Assembly (NCBI GenBank): GCA_018646105.1
Contig: JABGVJ010000050.1
Coordinates: forward strand, 1-48,046
From: a bacterium
GTDB lineage: Bacteria > Margulisbacteria > Marinamargulisbacteria > JABGVJ01
DNA length: 48,046 nt
Reading direction: 5' to 3'
How positions within the stretch are numbered: position 1 is the stretch's first letter; the number at the start of each line of letters is the position of its first letter. The translations under genes were made by a program, and so were the position numbers. Positions 1 through 42,062 of this stretch are shown piece after piece. A model generated the notes under the pieces. That model saw only the letters and a program-made list of their open reading frames with translations. It had not been told where the DNA came from and searched no databases.

Positions 1-157
1 CATCGATTTTTTATGGTGTTTTATCATTCCCCCATAATACGATTGATTTCTTTTAAAATATGGTCTATATCCTGAAAAGGTTTGGGGAAAGCATGTTCAA
101 TCTCTAGCTTTTTTGCACCTACAATGATTTTGGTACATGCGCTGATCTTCTTTTAAG

Positions 158-245
158 CCTCACCCCCTTTGTCTCTCAGTCACGCCTAACACTCACCCCC
201 TCGCACTTCGTGCTGTCCCCCTCTCTATTCTATAGAGGGGGACTC
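158..245. repeat. GC-rich double-hairpin dispersed repeat, copy R1
   Basis: Contains cctcaccccc (158-167), hairpin gcac-ttc-gtgc (203-213) and hairpin ccccctct/agaggggg (217-241). Positions 187-241 match the reverse complement of 42002-42060. Confidence 0.85.
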
Positions 246-604
246 TAATTCCATCGCTTGTCATGCTGAACTTGTTTCAGCATCTGTGTTGTTATTTTAC
301 TTACCCCTGGTAGGGGCATTAATCAAAGACTTGCGTCTTTGCGGTCTGGTCATCTTTTTTCTTTGCCAAAGCTCAAAGAAAAAAGAAGCAAAAAAGAAAA
401 AGCTTTTTAATGCGGCATAACTCGCTACGGTAATTCGTGATAGCCGCTTCGGTTCAGCCAAGCATCTAGCTACTTCTATTGATTTTTCTGTATGGATGCT
501 CGGCTTCTCTCTCAGCTCTTTCACGAATTAGCCTCCACTCAAACAAATGCCGCGGTAGGTTAGTTTTTCAAGCTATGCACCTATATATAGAAGGGGTAAA
601 TGTA

Positions 605-836
605 ATGAACCAAAAAAAAAGTACCAGAATACATCAGAAAAAATATCCGAAAAATAGGGTTTAAAATAGCAAAATTGCGGTTAGCTAAAAAATTGAGTCG
701 TAAAAAATTGGCTTATAGTATTGGTATGGCTAAAAGTTATTTGGGGTACATTGAAAAAGGGCAGTCTAATCCAACCATAGAAACGCTATATTTGATAGCT
801 GGAGGGTTAGGATGTGAAGTTAAGGATTTATTGTAA
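605..836 (+). pseudogene. XRE-family helix-turn-helix regulator with its reading frame split by an A9 homopolymer
   Basis: ATG at 605 follows a Shine-Dalgarno-like gaagggg (590-596). It reads MNQKK and then runs out of frame to a stop at 664. The +1 frame from 609 to the TAA at 834-836 reads ..KIGFKIAKLRLAKKLSRKKLAYSIGMAKSYLGYIEKGQSNPTIETLYLIAGGLGCEVKDLL, a textbook Cro/C1-type HTH, but it has no ATG of its own before the middle of the HTH. The two frames meet in the run of nine A at 612-620. Confidence 0.6.
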
Positions 837-984
837 TTAGGTTTTGGTTCCGGGAGTTCTTTAGCGGTTAATTCCTAGGTGTTTTATATTGATTTACAAT
901 GAATTCAATGAAGCTTAGGTTAGAAAATATTTTTTTTAAGAAATATCAACAAATCAATGGCAAAGTTTTCAATGTGGGGTTCGG

Positions 985-1275
985 TTAGTTTTGAAATAGT
1001 ATTGCCTCCGTATTTAATTCTGTCTTTAGACAATTATTATATTCATCAAAAATGTCCTTTAGCGTATTTAAAATAAGCTTTTCCTTTTCGTCTTCTGTTT
1101 CAGAACAAGTTAACGTTATACTTTTATCGTCATCAATCGCTTTTGTTAATCTTTCTATAAGTGCTGTAAAGTCAATATCATCTACATATTTTAAAACAAT
1201 ATCGTCACCTAATCCTGATATAGTTATGGCACTGTTAGCTCTATTTATAGTTGCCTCACATTTCGTGTTTATCAT
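985..1275 (-). CDS. Small acidic hypothetical protein (96 aa), operonic with the PHP-ATPase gene
   Basis: ORF of 96 aa. Its ATG (1275-1273) lies 8 nt after the TAA (1286-1284) of the upstream 799-aa gene, and a ggaaagg SD-like sequence sits inside the upstream 3' end. D/E-rich (DD, DDID, DDD, ETEDEKE). I recognise no motif. Confidence 0.6.
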   Translation of the reverse strand: MINTKCEATINRANSAITISGLGDDIVLKYVDDIDFTALIERLTKAIDDDKSITLTCSETEDEKEKLILNTLKDIFDEYNNCLKTELNTEAILFQN

Positions 1276-1283
1276 TTTTTATT

Positions 1284-3683
1284 TTACCTTTCCTTTAATA
1301 TTCTTTCTATGTTGTATTTTTTCGATCGTTTATCGAATATATACTCGCCACCGTCTAAAATACCACATATCTTTTTTTGAGCATGTTTATCTTCTAAAAC
1401 AATTTGTTTATAGGATATTTGATTTTCATTGTTTTCAGCTAGGATAATGCATTCTGCATCTCCATATACAACAATAGAGGGATTGTGTGTAACTAAAAAT
1501 ATTTGTTTCTGAAATTTAATATCTCTAAAAATATCTACTAATTTTTCAGTAATAAATTGGTTTCCTAAATTATCTTCTGGTTGGTCTATAAATATCAAAT
1601 TAGTGGTGGTTTTTTTTAATATTATTTCTACATACTTTTCTGAATTAAAACCAGGGCTATTATTTTTAGAAGTGCTGCCATCTTCGTATTTTAAGAAATC
1701 CGTAGGTTTATCTAAATAGCTCTCCAAATCTTTAATCAACGAATTGATCTTTTTAGATAAATTATTTGGTTGATTATTAGGAAGATTTTTTATTTTTATT
1801 TTTCCGTTTAACAGATATATCAAATTTAGATAAATGCTTTTCTGAGTATCTGAGTTACTTATTCCTTCAAGTATAATTTGTTTTAAATCATCTTCTTTTT
1901 CTATTTCTAAAACGAGCTTGGTTTGTTCATCTAACTCAATTTCTTTTTGTAATGAGTAATCAAAATTTTCTAATGCTTGACTTTTTAATCTTAAAATTTT
2001 CATTTTTACGAAAGTATCTTTTGCTTTTCCTATTAAAAGCTTTATCTCTTCTTGTGCCGCATGCTTTTGTCGTGCGTTTATGTTTAATGAGTCAGTTCTA
2101 ATTTTTAGTTTTGCATTAATTGAGGTTACTAAATTGATTTTCTTAGTGTTTTTTTCTTTTTTACTACTAATTAAAAACAGTTTTTTTTGAAGAAGTGTTT
2201 TAAATTCATTAATAATTCTAACTTCATCATCACTAAGTTCCAAAATTTTCTTTTGATTTATGCTCAGCAAGTTACTTTCTAAGTTACTAATTGAGTCCCT
2301 TAGAGCATCTAAATTGCGATCGAGATCATTGAATTTTTCACATAATTTATCATAATCAAACTTTAATATGAATTCCTTACTCAATATTTTATCGATAGTG
2401 CCCTTATGTAAATGATATTTTGTGCCTTCTACCGTTTCATATACATTTTTATAAGCATCGTTGAGTTCATTAATAACAAGATGCATTTGATCTTTATGTT
2501 TTCTGAATTTCTTTGTGAGTTGTTTGTATTCTTCAGCTTTATCTGACTTTTTGGCTAAATCTTCAAGTTTATTGTTTTCAAAATAATTAATAATATCACC
2601 TTGATTTATATATATTAAATCAGAGGTTATTGAAGTTACAGATTTATATTCCAGGTCATGTTTAGATTTAATTAGAACTTTGGTTTTATCTATTATATTG
2701 TCATATTTATCATCACTTTTGAGCTTATCAATTTTTTTACTAAATAAATTCATTAATAAACTTTTTCCACTTGACCGTCCCCCAATAATCACATTCATAT
2801 GAGGACTAAATTTTAATTCACAAAATTCTAAAATCTTGTGTTTGTCTATCTTTAACTTTTCTATAACATTATTTTGATGACCTATTTCTTCATATTCCTT
2901 AGACGATTTTATTCTTGAACGAGGATCAATAAATGCTAATCTTAAAGTATCATAAGATTTACTTCCTTTAATATAATAAAAATTATGTTCTTTACAATCG
3001 GGGTCTCCTTTATGCGTAAATGGATATTTTAATATATTGTGATTATCGGAAAACTCTATATAAGCAACATCATTTTTTGCTTTGAAAGAGTCTTGAAGCA
3101 TACCATCAAAACCTTCATTGTATTTCTGCTTAGCTTTTTCTGGCACTTTTTCTAAAGCACTTGGCATTAGCAATATCATTTTTTGAGCATCCTCTGTATT
3201 GCCTTTGTAACCAGCAACAATGCTTTTTTTATTCCCAGCATGGGGAATAAAGAAAAAATCATCATCAGGAAATAATTCTATTATTTCCTTAATTGTTAAC
3301 TTTCTATTTTTGAAAGTTAAGTGTTTTTCTCTATATTTATTGTCAAACTTTGCGCTTATTTCTTCGGCTTTGTCATATGTTGAATAATTAAAAACAAGTA
3401 ATGAATGATATCTTTTTCCATCTTTATCAATATCTAGTTCAACACCAACTAAAAGTAATGGGTCAGCTTCTGAATTATGATTTTCATAGTATTTTTTATA
3501 TGCCTCTAAATTGATAATATTATGGTCTGTTAAGGAAAAAATTTTAACTTCAGTTCTAGTTAATTTTTCATGCAAAGTATAAACAGAAAAATCGCCTTTA
3601 TAGTCATTATCTTTTGTTTTCTTTGAATAATCAGTATGTATATGAAGATCTATTTTTAACCATTCTGAATATTTTTTACTCAT
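1284..3683 (-). CDS. PHP-domain phosphoesterase fused to a Rad50/SMC-like ABC ATPase with a long coiled-coil insert
   Basis: The N-terminal ~260 aa carry the full PHP motif set: DLHIHTD (HxH), LTDHN (DH), GVELD (E), YHSLL (H), IPHAG (H), FSDNHN (DxH). Walker A is IIGGRSSGKS at aa 299-308. About 390 aa of K/E/L/N-rich heptad-like sequence follow. Walker B/D-loop is LIFIDQPEDNL at aa ~696 and the H-loop is FLVTHNPS. A possible signature-like NNSPGFNSEKY lies upstream of Walker B. Confidence 0.85.
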   Translation of the reverse strand: MSKKYSEWLKIDLHIHTDYSKKTKDNDYKGDFSVYTLHEKLTRTEVKIFSLTDHNIINLEAYKKYYENHNSEADPLLLVGVELDIDKDGKRYHSLLVFNYSTYDKAEEISAKFDNKYREKHLTFKNRKLTIKEIIELFPDDDFFFIPHAGNKKSIVAGYKGNTEDAQKMILLMPSALEKVPEKAKQKYNEGFDGMLQDSFKAKNDVAYIEFSDNHNILKYPFTHKGDPDCKEHNFYYIKGSKSYDTLRLAFIDPRSRIKSSKEYEEIGHQNNVIEKLKIDKHKILEFCELKFSPHMNVIIGGRSSGKSLLMNLFSKKIDKLKSDDKYDNIIDKTKVLIKSKHDLEYKSVTSITSDLIYINQGDIINYFENNKLEDLAKKSDKAEEYKQLTKKFRKHKDQMHLVINELNDAYKNVYETVEGTKYHLHKGTIDKILSKEFILKFDYDKLCEKFNDLDRNLDALRDSISNLESNLLSINQKKILELSDDEVRIINEFKTLLQKKLFLISSKKEKNTKKINLVTSINAKLKIRTDSLNINARQKHAAQEEIKLLIGKAKDTFVKMKILRLKSQALENFDYSLQKEIELDEQTKLVLEIEKEDDLKQIILEGISNSDTQKSIYLNLIYLLNGKIKIKNLPNNQPNNLSKKINSLIKDLESYLDKPTDFLKYEDGSTSKNNSPGFNSEKYVEIILKKTTTNLIFIDQPEDNLGNQFITEKLVDIFRDIKFQKQIFLVTHNPSIVVYGDAECIILAENNENQISYKQIVLEDKHAQKKICGILDGGEYIFDKRSKKYNIERILKER

Positions 3684-3825
3684 ATTTTATCATCACTTCC
3701 CCACTCATCAATTTCGGCAATAATGTATCACGGAGTTTTTGAAGGTGTTGGTATTGTCGTAACTGGCAATACCGCTGTTTTCTGACTTACCTTCTAAGTG
3801 CTCCTGCAATCGCTTGCCATTATAT

Positions 3826-4230
3826 TTATTTTTCATTCAACAATGGCTCTTCTTTTGCAAATGTTGCGCCACAATGACCACACACTTCTGCCTCACCATC
3901 AATGGATGTCCTGCATTTAGAACATTTATAAATATCAGAACAAGTCACCGCGCTTAGGAGGCCGGCTATTAACCAGCCAATTCCAAAAGTAAAGCAACTC
4001 GTTACAATGGCACCGGCTAAAAAGAGTACACCTGCCCCCGTTTTACCTTGCACAAATTGTCCTACGCCAGGAATAAAAAAAGATATTATCATTACAAAAC
4101 AACCAGCAGATTCTTTTATTTTTTTAGCAGAATTTTCCGTAGCCTTGTTTTCGTTTAACAGTTCACCGCAATGTTTACACTTTATGGCTTTTTCCTGAAT
4201 TTCCTCAGCGCAGTAAGGACAGTTTTTCAT
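3826..4230 (-). CDS. Membrane protein with N- and C-terminal zinc ribbons flanking a TM2-like hydrophobic core
   Basis: N-terminal CPYC..x13..CKHC and C-terminal CSKC..x11..CGHC cysteine pairs. The central segment FFIPGVGQFVQGKTGAGVLFLAGAIVTSCFTFGIGWLIAGLL looks like two TM helices of the TM2-domain type. Same strand as the PHP-ATPase gene and 142 bp upstream of it. Confidence 0.75.
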   Translation of the reverse strand: MKNCPYCAEEIQEKAIKCKHCGELLNENKATENSAKKIKESAGCFVMIISFFIPGVGQFVQGKTGAGVLFLAGAIVTSCFTFGIGWLIAGLLSAVTCSDIYKCSKCRTSIDGEAEVCGHCGATFAKEEPLLNEK

Positions 4231-4352
4231 GATTTACTCCTTTTCTAGTCTTATATATCTTCCACGATTATATACCAAACCTCCTCGCAATAAAATCCCC
4301 AGTTTTTCTTATTTTTATGCTTAATCCAGATATCTGTCTAAAACGATCTACC

Positions 4353-4476
4353 GGCACATTGAAAGCGAAAATCGACGAGCAAGAGAACGACACTTTAAAT
4401 TTTCATGTCTGAGCGTAGCGAGTTTGAAAATTTAAAGCGAGTGAACGCAGTGAGGACTATTTAAGCTTTCAGTGCC
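4353..4476. repeat. 124-nt nested inverted-repeat element (MITE-like or a structured RNA)
   Basis: Outer arms are ggcacattgaaagc (4353-66) and gctttcagtgcc (4465-76), with a 2-nt bulge. Inner arms are a perfect 13 bp: ctttaaattttca (4393-4405) and tgaaaatttaaag (4425-37). Confidence 0.7.
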
Positions 4477-4674
4477 AATAAGCCAAGGAAGGTTTGCAAA
4501 AGGAAACCTAGCGGCTTTAGCTTGGTTTCCTTTTGATAAGATCGCAAAGGACGCAGGCCTTTGCATTAACACCATCGCTGGTAACGATTACCTTTTACTG
4601 GAATGCAGACACAGATTCCGTCAGTGACAGGGTTACGGTACCTTAACCTATTTCAAATTTTTTACAGAAAAAGT

Positions 4675-4722
4675 GTCACCATAGTGACAGTTATGCTCAA
4701 GGAGATTGTCACTATAGTGACA
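4675..4722. promoter_or_regulatory. Two copies of a GTCAC-N4-GTGAC palindrome (putative operator pair) upstream of the 4851 ORF
   Basis: tgtcaccatagtgaca (4674-4689) and the perfect 16-bp palindrome tgtcactatagtgaca (4707-4722). Their centres are 33 bp apart. A related gtcagtgac lies at 4620-4628. A tataat box at 4753-4758 lies just downstream. Confidence 0.55.
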
Positions 4723-4850
4723 TTTTCACTAACCATCTCGGCTATTTTTCGCTATAATGAAATCACAGATTGACACTGATCAATAACGCAGTATGGCTAT
4801 TTTGGGGTAATTCCAAGTATATATACTTGAAAGAATAGAGGGGAAAACAA

Positions 4851-6011
4851 ATGCAAACTGAAGAGCAAAATTCTGTTACCCAAATTCAAGATATACAAGA
4901 AATAGCTAACAAGCCGGTTATTAAGGCTGAGGATGTTGCGTTTGGAATAGAAAAAAAAAATCTATCTAGCCTAATTTTTTTCTTAGAAAATCAAACATCT
5001 AATAGCTGCCTTTATTTCACACCTGATTTACACGATTTCTACCATGATTTCAAACATAAAATAAATAAAAATAAAATAATTTATGATATTAATAAATATA
5101 AAAACGAAATATTTAAGCATAAATTTTTATTAAAAAATATTTTCTGTGTTTTAGATTTTTCTGGATTTGAAAAATATGAAGATTCTGTTACGTACGATTT
5201 TTATGGGGCCTTGAAAAAAAGAAGTAAATTTAATTGTGTTTTAACTATTTTAAAAAATATTAATAACTTATTAGCAGAAAATGGCAATATAAAACTGTTT
5301 ATTTTAAATAAAAATCCTAAAATCAATATAATAAAACTATTTTTAAATTGTGCTTATTTTGACAATATTGTAATTAATAAAAATATTATTATAGCTCAAA
5401 AAAAAAGCTTCGAAAATTACACATTTGATCATGGCAATTTAACATTTAAAGAAACAATTAATATTGAAGACGTAAAAAAAATTCAAAATTTTGCTAAACT
5501 GTTATTTAAGGAAAATAATTTTGATATTTCAATAGATAGTTTATTTACCCCAAATTCGAGCTTTTATTATTGCTATAGAACTGATACTGAGGAGATAGTG
5601 AATTTCATGAGGTATACTTGGTATCTGCCAAAATATCCGATGCCTTGTATGTTGGCTCAAAAGAAAGATTCTCAAGAACACATAAAACTTTGGAATTCTG
5701 AGAAAAAACTTTACGGGGAAATTTTTGCGCCTTTTAATAAAAAATTATCGGCAGTAAAAGCTTATAAAGAATTTGTTAAAAATCTTTTGCAATATTGCTT
5801 AAACAACAATATATATAAAGTATATACAACTTATAATATTAAAGATTTGTTAAGTGGAATTGTATTCAATAAATATTTTGGTTTTGAAAAATCTGATATA
5901 AGTTTAATATACGGTGATTTTAAGAATACTTGGGCTTTGATTAAAGGAGAGCCAAAATTAATGGAGCCTATTCTAAATAAATTTATTGGGATAAAAGAAA
6001 GGATTTTTTGA
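4851..6011 (+). CDS. Hypothetical protein (386 aa), extremely AT-rich, coupled to the downstream sensor kinase
   Basis: Long uninterrupted ORF in very AT-rich DNA, where random stops are frequent. aggggaaaac lies upstream of the ATG. Its stop (6009-6011) lies 2 nt before the kinase ATG at 6014 and overlaps the TTG at 6008. Only weak, degenerate resemblances: VLDFSGFEKY...LLAENGNIKLFI is methyltransferase-fold-like and the C-terminal ..YFGFEK is GNAT-like. Neither is convincing. Confidence 0.6.
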   Translation: MQTEEQNSVTQIQDIQEIANKPVIKAEDVAFGIEKKNLSSLIFFLENQTSNSCLYFTPDLHDFYHDFKHKINKNKIIYDINKYKNEIFKHKFLLKNIFCVLDFSGFEKYEDSVTYDFYGALKKRSKFNCVLTILKNINNLLAENGNIKLFILNKNPKINIIKLFLNCAYFDNIVINKNIIIAQKKSFENYTFDHGNLTFKETINIEDVKKIQNFAKLLFKENNFDISIDSLFTPNSSFYYCYRTDTEEIVNFMRYTWYLPKYPMPCMLAQKKDSQEHIKLWNSEKKLYGEIFAPFNKKLSAVKAYKEFVKNLLQYCLNNNIYKVYTTYNIKDLLSGIVFNKYFGFEKSDISLIYGDFKNTWALIKGEPKLMEPILNKFIGIKERIF

Positions 6012-6013
6012 AA

Positions 6014-8113
6014 ATGGATATATTATATTCTTCCTCCATGTTATTTACTGCTATATTTAGTTTGGTTTTTTCTTTAGGAATTTATTTTAAAGGAAAAAAC
6101 AAGGTAATTAATAACACAGCCATATTCTTCTTTTTCACAATATTTATTTGGGCTTTAGGACGAGCTTTTATGGATATTTGTTCTACAAAGCAACTAGCTC
6201 TGTTTTTCCTTAAATTTTCTTATAGTGGCTCTGTATGGATGCCCTTAGCCTTTCTGTTATTTTGTTGGGCTATATTAGAAAAAAAGTTTAATAAACCCTT
6301 AGTTTTTATCTTGAGTTTGATTTCTTTTGTATTATTTATTTTAAATTTCTATGGTTATATTGTGATAGATTTACAGCCCAAATTAAACTTTCAATTTTAT
6401 GATGTTCCTGGGGGATATGCTTTTGAGTTTTTTTCTAATTATTACTCTCTTATTTTAGCTTATGCTTTTATAGAGCTTATTATAGGTATCATTAAAAACC
6501 AAGGACAAAAAAAAATTCAAATAATCTATTTACTAATAGCCTCTTTAATTGGTTTTGTACCATCATTTACAACCTTTCCCCTCGTTAAGGATATTCCCTT
6601 ATATCCTTTCGGGGTTCCTATAATCGCTTTTTATACTTTTATACTGGCTTTTGGGATCATTAAATATGAACTTGCAGATATTACCTTAATAATTAATAGA
6701 ATTTTAGCTTATTTTTTTGTTCTAATTTTTATAATACCAACTGTTTTAGTACCCCTTTATCTACCTATAAATTTTAGCCTTAAAACAATTATCGTTTGTT
6801 TCGTCACAATTTTTTGGGCTTTCGCAACTATTCCTTGCCATAAATTTTTAATAACTAAGGCCAAACGCAAATTTATCAAAGGCTACTACGACCCTGACGC
6901 TCCATTCAATATCATCTCTAAAAAACTAGCTAAGGAAAATGACCGAACAAAAATATTTAACATTATGGCTCAAGTGCTAGATAAACAAATGCAGTTTGAA
7001 AAAATCGCCGTTCTCTTAGCTGTCAGAACCAAGGATAAAATAAGTAAATATGTGTTCATAGAAAAAGAGCCAGAAACAAACAACACCCTAAATGAAGAAA
7101 CTTTAGAGCAAAATCACTCTGTTATCCAATTTTTGACTAAACAAATTAAACCTTTTTTTCTTAATCAAAAAGACCTGAAAACGGAAAATAAAGTGGCTAA
7201 ATTCTTCACCCATTATGACTTTCCTAAAAACACTTTTTGCTTACCCTTTGTTTCAGTCGATGGTTTAGAAGGAATGATTATCCTGGGTGAAAGAAGTTGC
7301 GGAATCATCCTAAAGCAAAAAGAATTGGATATCTTTGATACCATCATCAGTCATGTATCTGCGCTGCTGTATAAGTACACGTCTGTGGAAAAAGTTAGAA
7401 AAGAGTTTGAATCCAGTCAGAAACAACTCTTTGAAGAAAAAGAACAAAGAATAAGAGCGGAAAAAATCGCGTCTTTAGTGCGGACTACGCAGGAATGTCA
7501 GCATGAGATTAGGACACCGGTAGCTGCAATAAAATTATGGCTAAATGGATTATCGGAACATCCATCAACAAACGAAATTGAAGAATTTAGGAAAGTGGCA
7601 ATAAAGCATATCAATAGATTATTATATGTGGTAGATGCTAGTCTAAGTTTAGCTACTAATAAAAAAAAGCAACTGGAAAAAGTAAATATTAATGAGGTCA
7701 TAGAAGAAGCAACTACATTAATTCCTCCCTATGGTTATCATTTAGCAAAAAAATTAGAAGAAGTACCTTTAATCTTAGGCGTGAAGGCAGAATTGGTTAG
7801 TGTTTTCTTAAACTTTCTTAACAATGCTAAAAAAGCGATGCAAAAAAATGGAGGAACTTTGACCATTAAAAGCTTTTTTGATGAGAATAGTAAATATGTA
7901 ATTATCAAAGTTACTGATACTGGTGTAGGTATAGCGCCGGAAAACCTGGAAAGAATCTGGGAGCCATATTTTACCACAGACAAAACTTATGGGCATGGCT
8001 TGGGATTGAGTATTATACATCAGATTGTTCAGAGCTATAAAGGTATTGTCCAAGTAGAAAGTGTTTTGAAAAAAGGTACGACTTTTACTTTAAAATTCCC
8101 GGCGGAGAGATAA
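6014..8113 (+). CDS. Sensor histidine kinase with a polytopic N-terminal membrane sensor domain
   Basis: About 8 hydrophobic helices in the first ~280 aa, then a linker or GAF-like region. H-box is ECQHEIRTPVAAI. ATP-binding motifs are FLNNAKKAM (N box), DTGVGI (G1) and GHGLGLSI (G2). ATG at 6014 preferred over the TTG at 6008. Confidence 0.85.
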   Translation: MDILYSSSMLFTAIFSLVFSLGIYFKGKNKVINNTAIFFFFTIFIWALGRAFMDICSTKQLALFFLKFSYSGSVWMPLAFLLFCWAILEKKFNKPLVFILSLISFVLFILNFYGYIVIDLQPKLNFQFYDVPGGYAFEFFSNYYSLILAYAFIELIIGIIKNQGQKKIQIIYLLIASLIGFVPSFTTFPLVKDIPLYPFGVPIIAFYTFILAFGIIKYELADITLIINRILAYFFVLIFIIPTVLVPLYLPINFSLKTIIVCFVTIFWAFATIPCHKFLITKAKRKFIKGYYDPDAPFNIISKKLAKENDRTKIFNIMAQVLDKQMQFEKIAVLLAVRTKDKISKYVFIEKEPETNNTLNEETLEQNHSVIQFLTKQIKPFFLNQKDLKTENKVAKFFTHYDFPKNTFCLPFVSVDGLEGMIILGERSCGIILKQKELDIFDTIISHVSALLYKYTSVEKVRKEFESSQKQLFEEKEQRIRAEKIASLVRTTQECQHEIRTPVAAIKLWLNGLSEHPSTNEIEEFRKVAIKHINRLLYVVDASLSLATNKKKQLEKVNINEVIEEATTLIPPYGYHLAKKLEEVPLILGVKAELVSVFLNFLNNAKKAMQKNGGTLTIKSFFDENSKYVIIKVTDTGVGIAPENLERIWEPYFTTDKTYGHGLGLSIIHQIVQSYKGIVQVESVLKKGTTFTLKFPAER

Positions 8114-41997: not shown

Positions 41998-42062
41998 ACT
42001 TCCCCCTCTATAGAATAGAGAGGGGGAGATGTCACGAAGTGACAGAGGGGGTGAGTGTTAAA
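41998..42062. repeat. GC-rich double-hairpin dispersed repeat, copy R2 (inverted relative to R1)
   Basis: ccccctct-atagaatag-agaggggg (42002-42026), gtcac-gaa-gtgac (42031-43), then gagggggtgagtgtta. The flanks are identical to R1 (16 nt and 25 nt). Confidence 0.85.

Follow-up and report, generated by a model that had tools for sequence, protein, structure and literature searches.

We analyzed a 48,046-nucleotide (nt) stretch of DNA, hereafter the window, from a bacterium of the Marinamargulisbacteria (GTDB lineage JABGVJ01; GenBank assembly GCA_018646105.1, contig JABGVJ010000050.1, positions 1 to 48,046 of the forward strand). The reverse strand of the window carries, at positions 985-3683, a cassette of two adjacent genes: a large gene that encodes a predicted PHP phosphoesterase fused to an SMC/Rad50-like ABC ATPase, and a small gene that encodes an acidic protein of about 100 amino acids (aa). 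The features of the cassette and the evidence for each are as follows.

1284..3683, reverse strand, stop codon included: large subunit, PHP phosphoesterase fused to an SMC/Rad50-like ABC ATPase (open reading frame (ORF), profiles, motifs, model, fold)
2874..3683, reverse strand: PHP domain, approximately aa 1-270, with ligands H14, H16, D53, H54, E82, H93, H148, D213 and H215 (profiles, alignment, model)
2544..2864, reverse strand: N-terminal half of the ABC head, aa 274-380, with Walker A (301-308) and Q361 (invariant columns; P-loop matches to PtuA and GajA in PADLOC and to AriA, Rad50 and SMC3 in PDB)
1968..2537, reverse strand: four helices, each 34-47 residues long, that make up a coiled-coil or helical insert at aa 383-572 (model secondary structure)
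1287..1952, reverse strand: C-terminal half of the ABC head, aa 578-799, with SPG 676-678, IDQPED 699-704 and H733 (invariant columns)
985..1275, reverse strand: small subunit, a 96-aa acidic protein with a predicted compact βββ-α-β-α domain and a disordered acidic tail (conserved linkage, model)

The large gene encodes 799 aa, starts with ATG and has the N-terminal sequence MSKKYSEWLKIDLHIHT; this start is backed by the conserved N-terminus, where S6, D12, L13, H14 and H16 are invariant. In an alignment of 44 sequences, comprising the window protein and 43 homologues with 47-68% identity, the PHP ligands H14/H16 (HIHT), D53/H54 (TDHN), E82 (GVE) and H93 (YHS) are invariant, as are H148 (PHAG) and D213/N214/H215 (SDNHN). 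An earlier interpretation of this DNA made from the letters alone (the sequence-only reading) had claimed that all six PHP metal-binding motifs are intact, and the alignment confirms this. Walker A (G301-S308, GGRSSGKS) and Walker B (D700-D704, IDQPED), which that reading had placed in the same 799-aa polypeptide, are invariant as well. So are three elements it had not listed, the Q-loop (Q361), the ABC signature (S676-P677-G678) and the H-loop (H733), so that the ABC ATPase motif set is complete.

Support from domain profiles is weaker than the motifs imply. Pfam PHP matches the large subunit with 22.2 bits, under the gathering cut-off of 26.4, and ABC_tran only with E = 0.22; the profile check proposed for the earlier assignment thus came out sub-threshold in Pfam, and the PHP and ABC assignments are instead based on the NCBIfam TrlF profile (E = 9e-71), precomputed PF02811 and PF13304 matches on homologues, and the fold search. 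The AlphaFold model of the large subunit has a mean predicted local distance difference test score (pLDDT) of 81 and a predicted template modeling score of 0.63. Foldseek matches it with probability 1.00 to the heads of SMC, cohesin/condensin, Rad50, RecF, RecN, AriA, JetC and retron-IA PtuA (E between 1e-5 and 1e-8 for the ABC-head matches), and matches its N-terminal part to the PHP exoribonuclease RNase AM of Vibrio cholerae (9etk, E = 3.8e-5), which is the best PDB match of the PHP half by both structure and sequence. A PDB sequence search with the single large protein gave no match; a search with the large-subunit profile retrieved only short stretches around the P-loop and Walker B of AriA, Rad50 and SMC3, AriA being the best for the ATPase head, and neither sequence nor profile found a Ppl structure in PDB. 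Together, the TrlF profile, the invariant motifs, the model and the fold matches back the architecture proposed earlier. The large subunit is a putative PHP phosphoesterase with intact predicted catalytic sites, fused to an SMC/Rad50-type ABC head that has a short coiled-coil insert.

The insert was the part of the earlier description that needed revision. All of the approximately 390 residues between Walker A and Walker B had been described as heptad-like, with the topology of Rad50, SbcC and RecN. The Rad50/RecN-like topology stands, but only about 190 aa (383-572) form the helical insert, a size in the range of RecF, RecN and AriA and not of Rad50; they are modeled as four helices of 34-47 residues with pLDDT 84-96 and are poorly conserved in sequence across the 44 proteins. 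The remaining residues between the Walker motifs are modeled as ABC head, outside the coiled coil, and neither the ORF sequence nor the model contains a CxxC zinc hook or an apex motif in the insert. Two other segments, aa 150-209 and the basic C-terminus 778-799, are conserved in the alignment and modeled with low confidence, which makes them candidate interaction surfaces. The conserved basic C-terminal segment of the large subunit, within aa 578-799, reads GGxYxFxxRxKKYNI; since segment 778-799 is common to solo TrlF and Ppl proteins, it is not partner-specific.

The small gene begins 8 nt past the stop codon of the large gene. In homologous loci, too, the small gene starts within a few bases of the large-gene stop, with called lengths of approximately 60-137 aa, mostly 90-120. 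With a hidden Markov model (HMM) of the small protein, an orthologue is detected directly downstream in every family locus apart from L049 and L059, which are cut by contig ends, and also next to a 30%-identical relative of the large subunit on an IMG/VR contig (L075). A four-way alignment of the small protein has 16 invariant columns. Profile search yielded 201 representatives of clusters at 50% identity; the 150 of these that were listed are all stand-alone proteins of 87-142 aa. Strong acidity is common to all of them, the net charge averaging -15. The small protein belongs to no family in Pfam, NCBIfam or PADLOC. Its AlphaFold model, built from a database-derived alignment, has a pLDDT of 86 and consists of the βββ-α-β-α domain followed by the disordered tail; a PDB fold search with this model returned nothing significant (best E = 0.34). 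Thus, the large-subunit clade is always co-encoded with an acidic protein of about 100 aa, usually with translational coupling, and the cassette is a two-gene module in which 985-1275 is the integral second subunit.

The sequence-only reading had pointed to two unrecognized neighbors of the large gene on the same strand. One is the conserved partner just described; the other, the upstream zinc-ribbon/transmembrane gene at 3826-4230, is no part of the module, as it has no homologue near any other cassette and its GC content (39.3%) is host-like, compared with 26.6% for the cassette. A fusion of the small protein into the longer TrlF proteins was also considered and dismissed, the HMM giving no match there. 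In two IMG/VR contigs, distant PHP-ATPase relatives of 856 and 869 aa are each overlapped on the downstream side by an ORF of about 107 aa (L076 7776-8102 and L078 8496-8819). The small-partner profile matches neither ORF; the encoded proteins may be partners that are unrelated or have diverged strongly.

The large subunit has more than 650 full-length homologues (clusters at 90% identity), with about 50% identity, from approximately nine phyla and with a clade length of 790-810 aa. The closest curated profile is that of the TrlF family (NF045780), which matches aa 4-659 over profile positions 1-680 of 944 with 239.8 bits (E = 9.2e-71), against a cut-off of 350. The Spaf_1101 family (NF045781) scores 99.1 bits against 475, the best stretch being the C-terminal ~95 residues (698-791), and the Ppl family (NF042955) 47.8 bits against 1000, with Ppl 409-880 aligned to aa 324-788 only. 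In PADLOC, Ppl (PDLC02208) matches only the 114 C-terminal residues (Ppl 776-889 on aa 674-787; 42.1 bits), the PtuA and GajA models match at the P-loop only, and PDC-M49A models match the PHP half (PDLC04680, E = 2e-11, 41 bits, in a model of 674 positions; PDLC04678, E = 4e-4). No Toprim domain was matched in either protein in Pfam, PADLOC or NCBIfam. Scores under the Ppl, TrlF and Spaf_1101 cut-offs mark the protein as a relative of those families and a member of none. Membership in Ppl is ruled out by the score and by the conserved second gene, membership in TrlF by the score, the shorter length (790-810 versus approximately 860-880 aa) and the partner gene, and membership in Spaf_1101 by the score. 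At the same time, the window protein has the intact PHP ligand set, the full ABC motif set and the ABC head fold of the PHP-ABC superfamily. Judged by sequence, therefore, it appears to represent a separate, previously unnamed clade of the PHP-ABC ATPase superfamily, alongside Ppl, TrlF and Spaf_1101.

Reportedly, Ppl was described by Gao and colleagues in 2020 as a single-gene anti-phage protein of Escherichia coli, and the sequence-only reading had compared the window protein with it. The general architecture is indeed alike, with an N-terminal PHP and a C-terminal ABC-type NTPase in one chain of approximately 800-900 aa, an alignable C-terminal ATPase segment, and defense contexts; family membership and single-gene status did not hold, the small gene being always attached. 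Furthermore, the PHP half of the window protein has no match to the Ppl models, and an element resembling the tip of SSB, the protein that binds single-stranded DNA, discussed below for the small subunit, is not described for Ppl. The system is Ppl-like in architecture and probably in logic, and differs in the two-gene organization of a sister clade. TrlF proteins share the PHP-ABC architecture and are found on mobile elements, beside toxin-antitoxin (TA) and DarTG-like genes, including plasmids of Listeria, Staphylococcus, Sulfitobacter and Citrobacter; the plasmid proteins are 25-38% identical to the large subunit in the PHP domain and the C-terminal head, and 30-38% over approximately 660-794. 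They differ in being longer (862-881 aa) and solo, the next annotated gene lying approximately 210-420 nt off. In the literature accessible to us, which was incomplete, no relevant publication on TrlF proteins was found.

Beyond the superfamily, the head fold and insert topology resemble those of AriA (PARIS), PtuA (Septu and retron-IA), GajA, LmuB, JetC (Wadjet), Rad50, RecN and RecF, with which the window protein also shares the logic of a nuclease under the control of an SMC-like ATPase. However, the nuclease is here a PHP domain fused in cis, not a Toprim, HNH or Mre11 nuclease in trans; the insert is of only about 190 aa and has no zinc hook; and the partner is a 100-aa acidic protein rather than a kleisin-like or Toprim one. 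With respect to OLD, Gabija GajA and PARIS AriAB, the alignments to GajA, PtuA and AriA are confined to the P-loop and Walker B regions. SbcCD and Mre11-Rad50 differ in that their nuclease is calcineurin-like, not PHP, in that the insert here is of ~190 aa and without CxxC, and in that the window family is patchy, not core. The multi-gene candidate system PDC-M49 of PADLOC resembles the cassette in its subunit A, which matches the PHP half, but this match is partial and low-scoring, and the small partner has no PADLOC model.

A scan of one genome per species across 185,579 reference species detected the large-subunit family at 55 loci in approximately nine phyla, a very patchy distribution that includes Campylobacterota, Desulfobacterota, Bacteroidota, Bacillota, Spirochaetota, Verrucomicrobiota, Fibrobacterota, Patescibacteria and Alphaproteobacteria, among others. 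At 22 of the 55 loci (at least 40%), type I restriction-modification (R-M) genes lie within 8 kb of the cassette, almost always co-oriented in the order hsdM-hsdS-[cassette]-(0-2 genes)-hsdR. At nine of these loci (L004, L011, L012, L013, L017, L018, L027, L029 and L034), only 0-17 nt separate hsdS from the large gene, and in L016, L020 and L021 three more HsdR-type proteins detected by a Pfam scan complete the arrangement. The count is a lower bound because several contigs end early. Flanks without hsd genes are enriched in AbiEi/AbiEii, Schlafen/AlbA_2-HATPase_c_4, RhuM, Fic, DUF1016, DUF4145, an XhoI R-M system, PIN, Gp49/helix-turn-helix (HTH) pairs, integrases and MobA/TraG. Time and again, genes lodged in type I R-M operons have turned out to be defense systems, such as TgvAB (PMC11411939), and this embedding is an experimentally validated predictor of defense (Payne et al., bioRxiv 10.1101/2024.01.29.577857; PMC11411939). 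For the cassette, co-oriented insertion between hsd genes recurs in unrelated taxa, the window itself being without hsd. The cassette thus moves between phyla, preferentially inside type I R-M operons and defense islands. A phage-borne origin was discarded, as phage and IMG/VR collections contain only distant superfamily relatives.

The hsdS-hsdR slot is shared, in L004 (10983-12488), L011 (13033-14526) and four more loci, by a protein of about 500 aa with Schlafen/AlbA_2, HATPase_c_4 and winged HTH domains, which also matches PADLOC models associated with pAgo.

Many small subunits end in a short motif after a poorly conserved acidic linker, most commonly DDLPF or DDIPF. Scored as an exact C-terminal end [DE]x?[ILMV]PF, the motif is found in 21 of 53 locus-derived sequences, 29 of 46 database-derived ones and 73 (49%) of the 150 non-redundant representatives listed of 201. 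Of the 1,792 remaining ORFs in these loci with a length of 80 aa or more, only 5 (0.3%) carry it: four SSB-like proteins of mobile elements and one unrelated membrane protein. Other small subunits have different acidic-hydrophobic-aromatic endings, such as DEILF, DDLLF, DDDF, EIPY and EEIW. The window protein ends in ...NTEAILFQN and its closest relatives in EEIW or EEMW, so that, by comparison of these sequences, its tail looks degenerate. The motif is dispersed over almost all clades of the large-subunit tree; it is therefore probably ancestral and was repeatedly lost.

The C-terminal tip of SSB is bound by client proteins including ExoI, RecQ, PriA, RecO, the chi subunit and DnaG. Its conserved hexapeptide DDDIPF docks many genome-maintenance proteins (PMC5872125, PMC10018359), and DDDLPF is the tip of SsbA in Staphylococcus and Streptococcus (PMC5531588, PMC5143411). 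About half of the small subunits resemble SSB in having an acidic disordered tail with D-D-[L/I]-P-F at the very C-terminus. The family differs from SSB in that its modeled βββ-α-β-α fold is not a five-stranded oligonucleotide/oligosaccharide-binding barrel and has no structural match to SSB, and in that the motif is missing or degenerate in about half of its members, the window copy included. IPF variants come from proteobacterial loci and loci of the Planctomycetes-Verrucomicrobia-Chlamydiae group, LPF variants from Bacteroidota and Ignavibacteria, a split that is suggestive of a match to the host SSB and is confounded with the phylogeny of the cassette. As a separate observation, SSB-like proteins ending in DDLPF or GDLPF are encoded in four Bacteroidota cassette loci (L023 8765-9232, L025 8750-9235, L024 5522-5857 and L037 7237-7629), those of L023 and L025 lying just upstream of the cassette; these are probably SSBs of mobile elements.

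In the window, the GC content of the cassette is 26.6%, compared with 35.1% for the rest, which confirms the AT-richness that the sequence-only reading had noticed for the large gene. The cassette is flanked by a histidine kinase/response regulator/malic enzyme block and by glycosyltransferase, purD, folE and leuS genes, and the related metagenomic contigs covering this site (98-100% identity) all share the arrangement. The nearest named homologues of the malic enzyme, from Bacteroidales metagenome-assembled genomes and Margulisiibacteriota, are only 61-64% identical to it, and weak matches to NCBIfam families named after Leptospira were given no weight as to the host. No empty-site allele was found: every related contig spanning the site carries the cassette. 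Two related contigs diverge just upstream, at approximately 4540 and 4961 of the window, showing that the region upstream of the cassette is variable.

We consider it probable that 985-3683 is a horizontally acquired anti-phage or anti-mobile-DNA module of two genes, with Ppl-like gating and a small regulatory or adaptor subunit. The defense part of this proposal is supported by genomic context. That the gene is accessory and defensive rather than housekeeping had been claimed from the window alone, and the context bears it out: the family occupies 55 loci in 185,579 species, in R-M operons and defense islands, and has no universal syntenic core position. The sensing of DNA ends or foreign DNA suggested in the earlier interpretation would be an analogy to Ppl and SbcCD. 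Ppl is reported to be a single-stranded DNA (ssDNA) 3'-5' exonuclease; nucleoside triphosphates (NTPs) bound at its two domains, PHP and NTPase, inhibit it, while NTP depletion together with 3'-OH ends activates it (review PMC12904381; Xu et al., Mol Cell 2026, as cited in PMC13434339). By analogy, the ABC ATPase of the window protein could act as a nucleotide- and DNA-dependent gate on the PHP nuclease: ATP-driven head engagement or nucleotide occupancy would hold the nuclease off, and infection-specific nucleic acids (free 3' ends or ssDNA), NTP depletion, or both would switch it on, resulting in degradation of phage nucleic acid.

The small protein would bind to the large one and serve as its regulator or adaptor. 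The flexible acidic tail might act in cis, plugging an SSB-tip-type pocket of the nuclease-ATPase until SSB-coated ssDNA displaces it, or in trans, by connecting the complex to host SSB-client proteins. We propose only tentatively, as one possibility, that the small subunit is a dedicated mimic of the SSB C-terminal tip, that is, a decoy or adaptor for the defense nuclease-ATPase that serves self-gating or that plugs into the host SSB interactome or baits its attackers. The degenerate ending of the window copy (...EAILFQN) implies that this step may be weakened or altered there.

Several observations weigh against the module as proposed. All functional statements on the PHP-ABC family with the small partner come from context or analogy, and the physical interaction of the two proteins is deduced solely from gene linkage. 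Scores under the Ppl, TrlF and Spaf_1101 cut-offs make transfer of the Ppl mechanism risky. RNA is a conceivable substrate, given that the PHP half finds its best structural match in an exoribonuclease. The canonical tail is missing from about half of the small subunits, the window's among them, and thus cannot be essential for the core function. In the window, no R-M or other recognizable defense gene adjoins the cassette, and promoter and terminator scans gave counts not above the shuffled expectation.

Among the other explanations, the one that comes closest to defense, with which it overlaps, differs in the role of the small protein and its tail. It is unlikely, in our estimate, that the cassette is a TA-like or abortive-infection (Abi) module, with a toxic PHP-ATPase nuclease, the small acidic protein as a labile antitoxin and the LPF/IPF tail as a protease degron; in this scheme, a phage that shuts off host expression would cause the small protein to decay and the nuclease to kill or arrest the cell. 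The tight coupling of a small acidic protein downstream of a large enzyme, its strong negative charge and the frequent TA or Abi neighbors fit this scheme, although in classic type II systems the antitoxin gene usually comes first, and half of the orthologues have no tail. In some strains of Streptococcus mutans, a C-terminal LPF taken from SsbA is enough to bring about degradation by ClpXP, but LPF is not recognized by ClpXP in E. coli, other streptococci and several S. mutans strains (PMC5143411), and hence is no general degron. It is rather improbable that the cassette is an accessory subunit of type I R-M, which would process DNA translocated or cut by HsdR or modulate restriction (for example, in restriction alleviation) in dependence on the flanking hsd genes, without being autonomous. 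This explanation would predict what is seen in many unrelated phyla, where the cassette is inserted in the same orientation between hsdS and hsdR, often within 0-17 nt of hsdS; yet hsd genes are absent within 8 kb at 33 or more of the 55 loci, among them the window and the ten contigs of its own population, and the same slot is also taken by unrelated autonomous systems (TgvAB, PrrC and Schlafen/AlbA genes).

The match of the PHP half to RNase AM (9etk), in structure and in PDB sequence, bears on a further alternative, in which the PHP domain is an ATPase-gated enzyme of the TrpH/RNase AM type, either an exoribonuclease or a phosphatase of 3'-phosphoadenosine 5'-phosphate (pAp) or oligoribonucleotides, so that the cassette would be an RNA or nucleotide-signal effector. 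One homologue is annotated by the Joint Genome Institute (JGI) as 'metal-dependent phosphoesterase TrpH', and a phage Ro60-like protein reported to counter Ppl hints at RNA involvement (PMC11482910). Nevertheless, the ATPase half falls in the DNA-binding SMC/Rad50/RecF/RecN class, the SSB-tip-like tail points towards ssDNA transactions, and Ppl, the only characterized relative, is reported to be an ssDNA exonuclease (PMC12904381); we regard an RNA effector as quite unlikely. A role in housekeeping repair, as a fused analogue of SbcCD or Mre11-Rad50 that acts on hairpins or breaks in the host chromosome, appears highly improbable. It would agree with the combination of a nuclease and a coiled-coil ABC ATPase, the Foldseek matches to Rad50 and RecN, and the malic enzyme, glycosyltransferase, purD, folE and leuS neighbors in the window, but is largely refuted by the extremely patchy distribution; moreover, the family has no conserved chromosomal position and is frequent in R-M operons and mobile elements, its GC content is 8.5 points under that of the host, the coiled coil is short and hook-less, and the nuclease is of the PHP, not the Mre11, type.

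The surroundings of the cassette in the window have several features of their own. Downstream of it, an Xre-type HTH ORF at 605-836 on the forward strand, convergent with the cassette and not upstream of it, encodes 53 aa from a TTG at 675; a canonical start is lacking, as is the first part of the HTH. Another frame, beginning with an ATG at 605, runs past A9 (612-620) and A6 (637-642) tracts to a stop at approximately 661, so that the regulator looks, from its sequence, as if split by a homopolymer frameshift; as the region is identical in independent metagenomic contigs (L064, 100%), a sequencing error is improbable. On the same side, a repeat of ~56 nt (187-242) recurs at 42001-42060 with 88% identity, and a 264-nt element (305-568) recurs at a different place in a contig of a related metagenome-assembled genome (L067 994-1257, 88%). 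These may be elements resembling miniature inverted-repeat transposable elements (MITE) or repetitive extragenic palindromes (REP). The earlier statement that the large gene sits among repeats is thus partly borne out, for short dispersed repeats on the downstream flank.

Upstream, two copies of a 16-bp palindrome (TGTCACCATAGTGACA and TGTCACTATAGTGACA), 33 nt apart at 4670-4726, lie in the 620-nt intergenic region between the zinc-ribbon/transmembrane gene and a divergent gene for a 386-aa protein, and by their arrangement look like an operator pair; a second hairpin is at 4497-4535. The 386-aa ORF (4851-6011, forward strand; GC content 24%) belongs to no Pfam family, has a weak match to the NCBIfam 'LBL_2463 family', and shares its last 4 nt with the beginning of a 7TM-HisKA histidine kinase gene (6008-8113, forward strand), the pair being conserved in the host population. 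An Rfam scan of positions 1-6000 detected no RNA family. GC skew is strongly and uniformly negative (approximately -0.3 to -0.47 in 1-kb windows) over nearly all of 9000-47000 and much weaker in the first 9 kb, where the cassette sits.

As a class of bacterial immunity, fusions of PHP and ATPase have received little study, and to our knowledge E. coli Ppl alone has a reported mechanism. The analysis identifies a large sister clade that is a two-gene unit and a recurrent cargo of the hsdS-hsdR slot in type I R-M operons, and that PADLOC v2 and NCBIfam recognize only through partial or sub-threshold matches. For annotation, this provides the rule of a large gene followed by the small gene, along with two alignments usable for detection models. 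In the literature we could consult, again incompletely, there was no publication on a PHP-ABC ATPase with a small partner or on an SSB-tip-like motif in a defense protein. If the proposal is correct, a widespread two-gene system, with at least 200 small-protein clusters at 50% identity in approximately nine phyla, would have been missed as such by defense catalogues. SSB-tip mimicry, if true, would be a principle of sensing or recruitment not described for any anti-phage system that we found; it concerns how a nuclease might be aimed at, or held back from, ssDNA intermediates and so bears on the discrimination between phage and self DNA.

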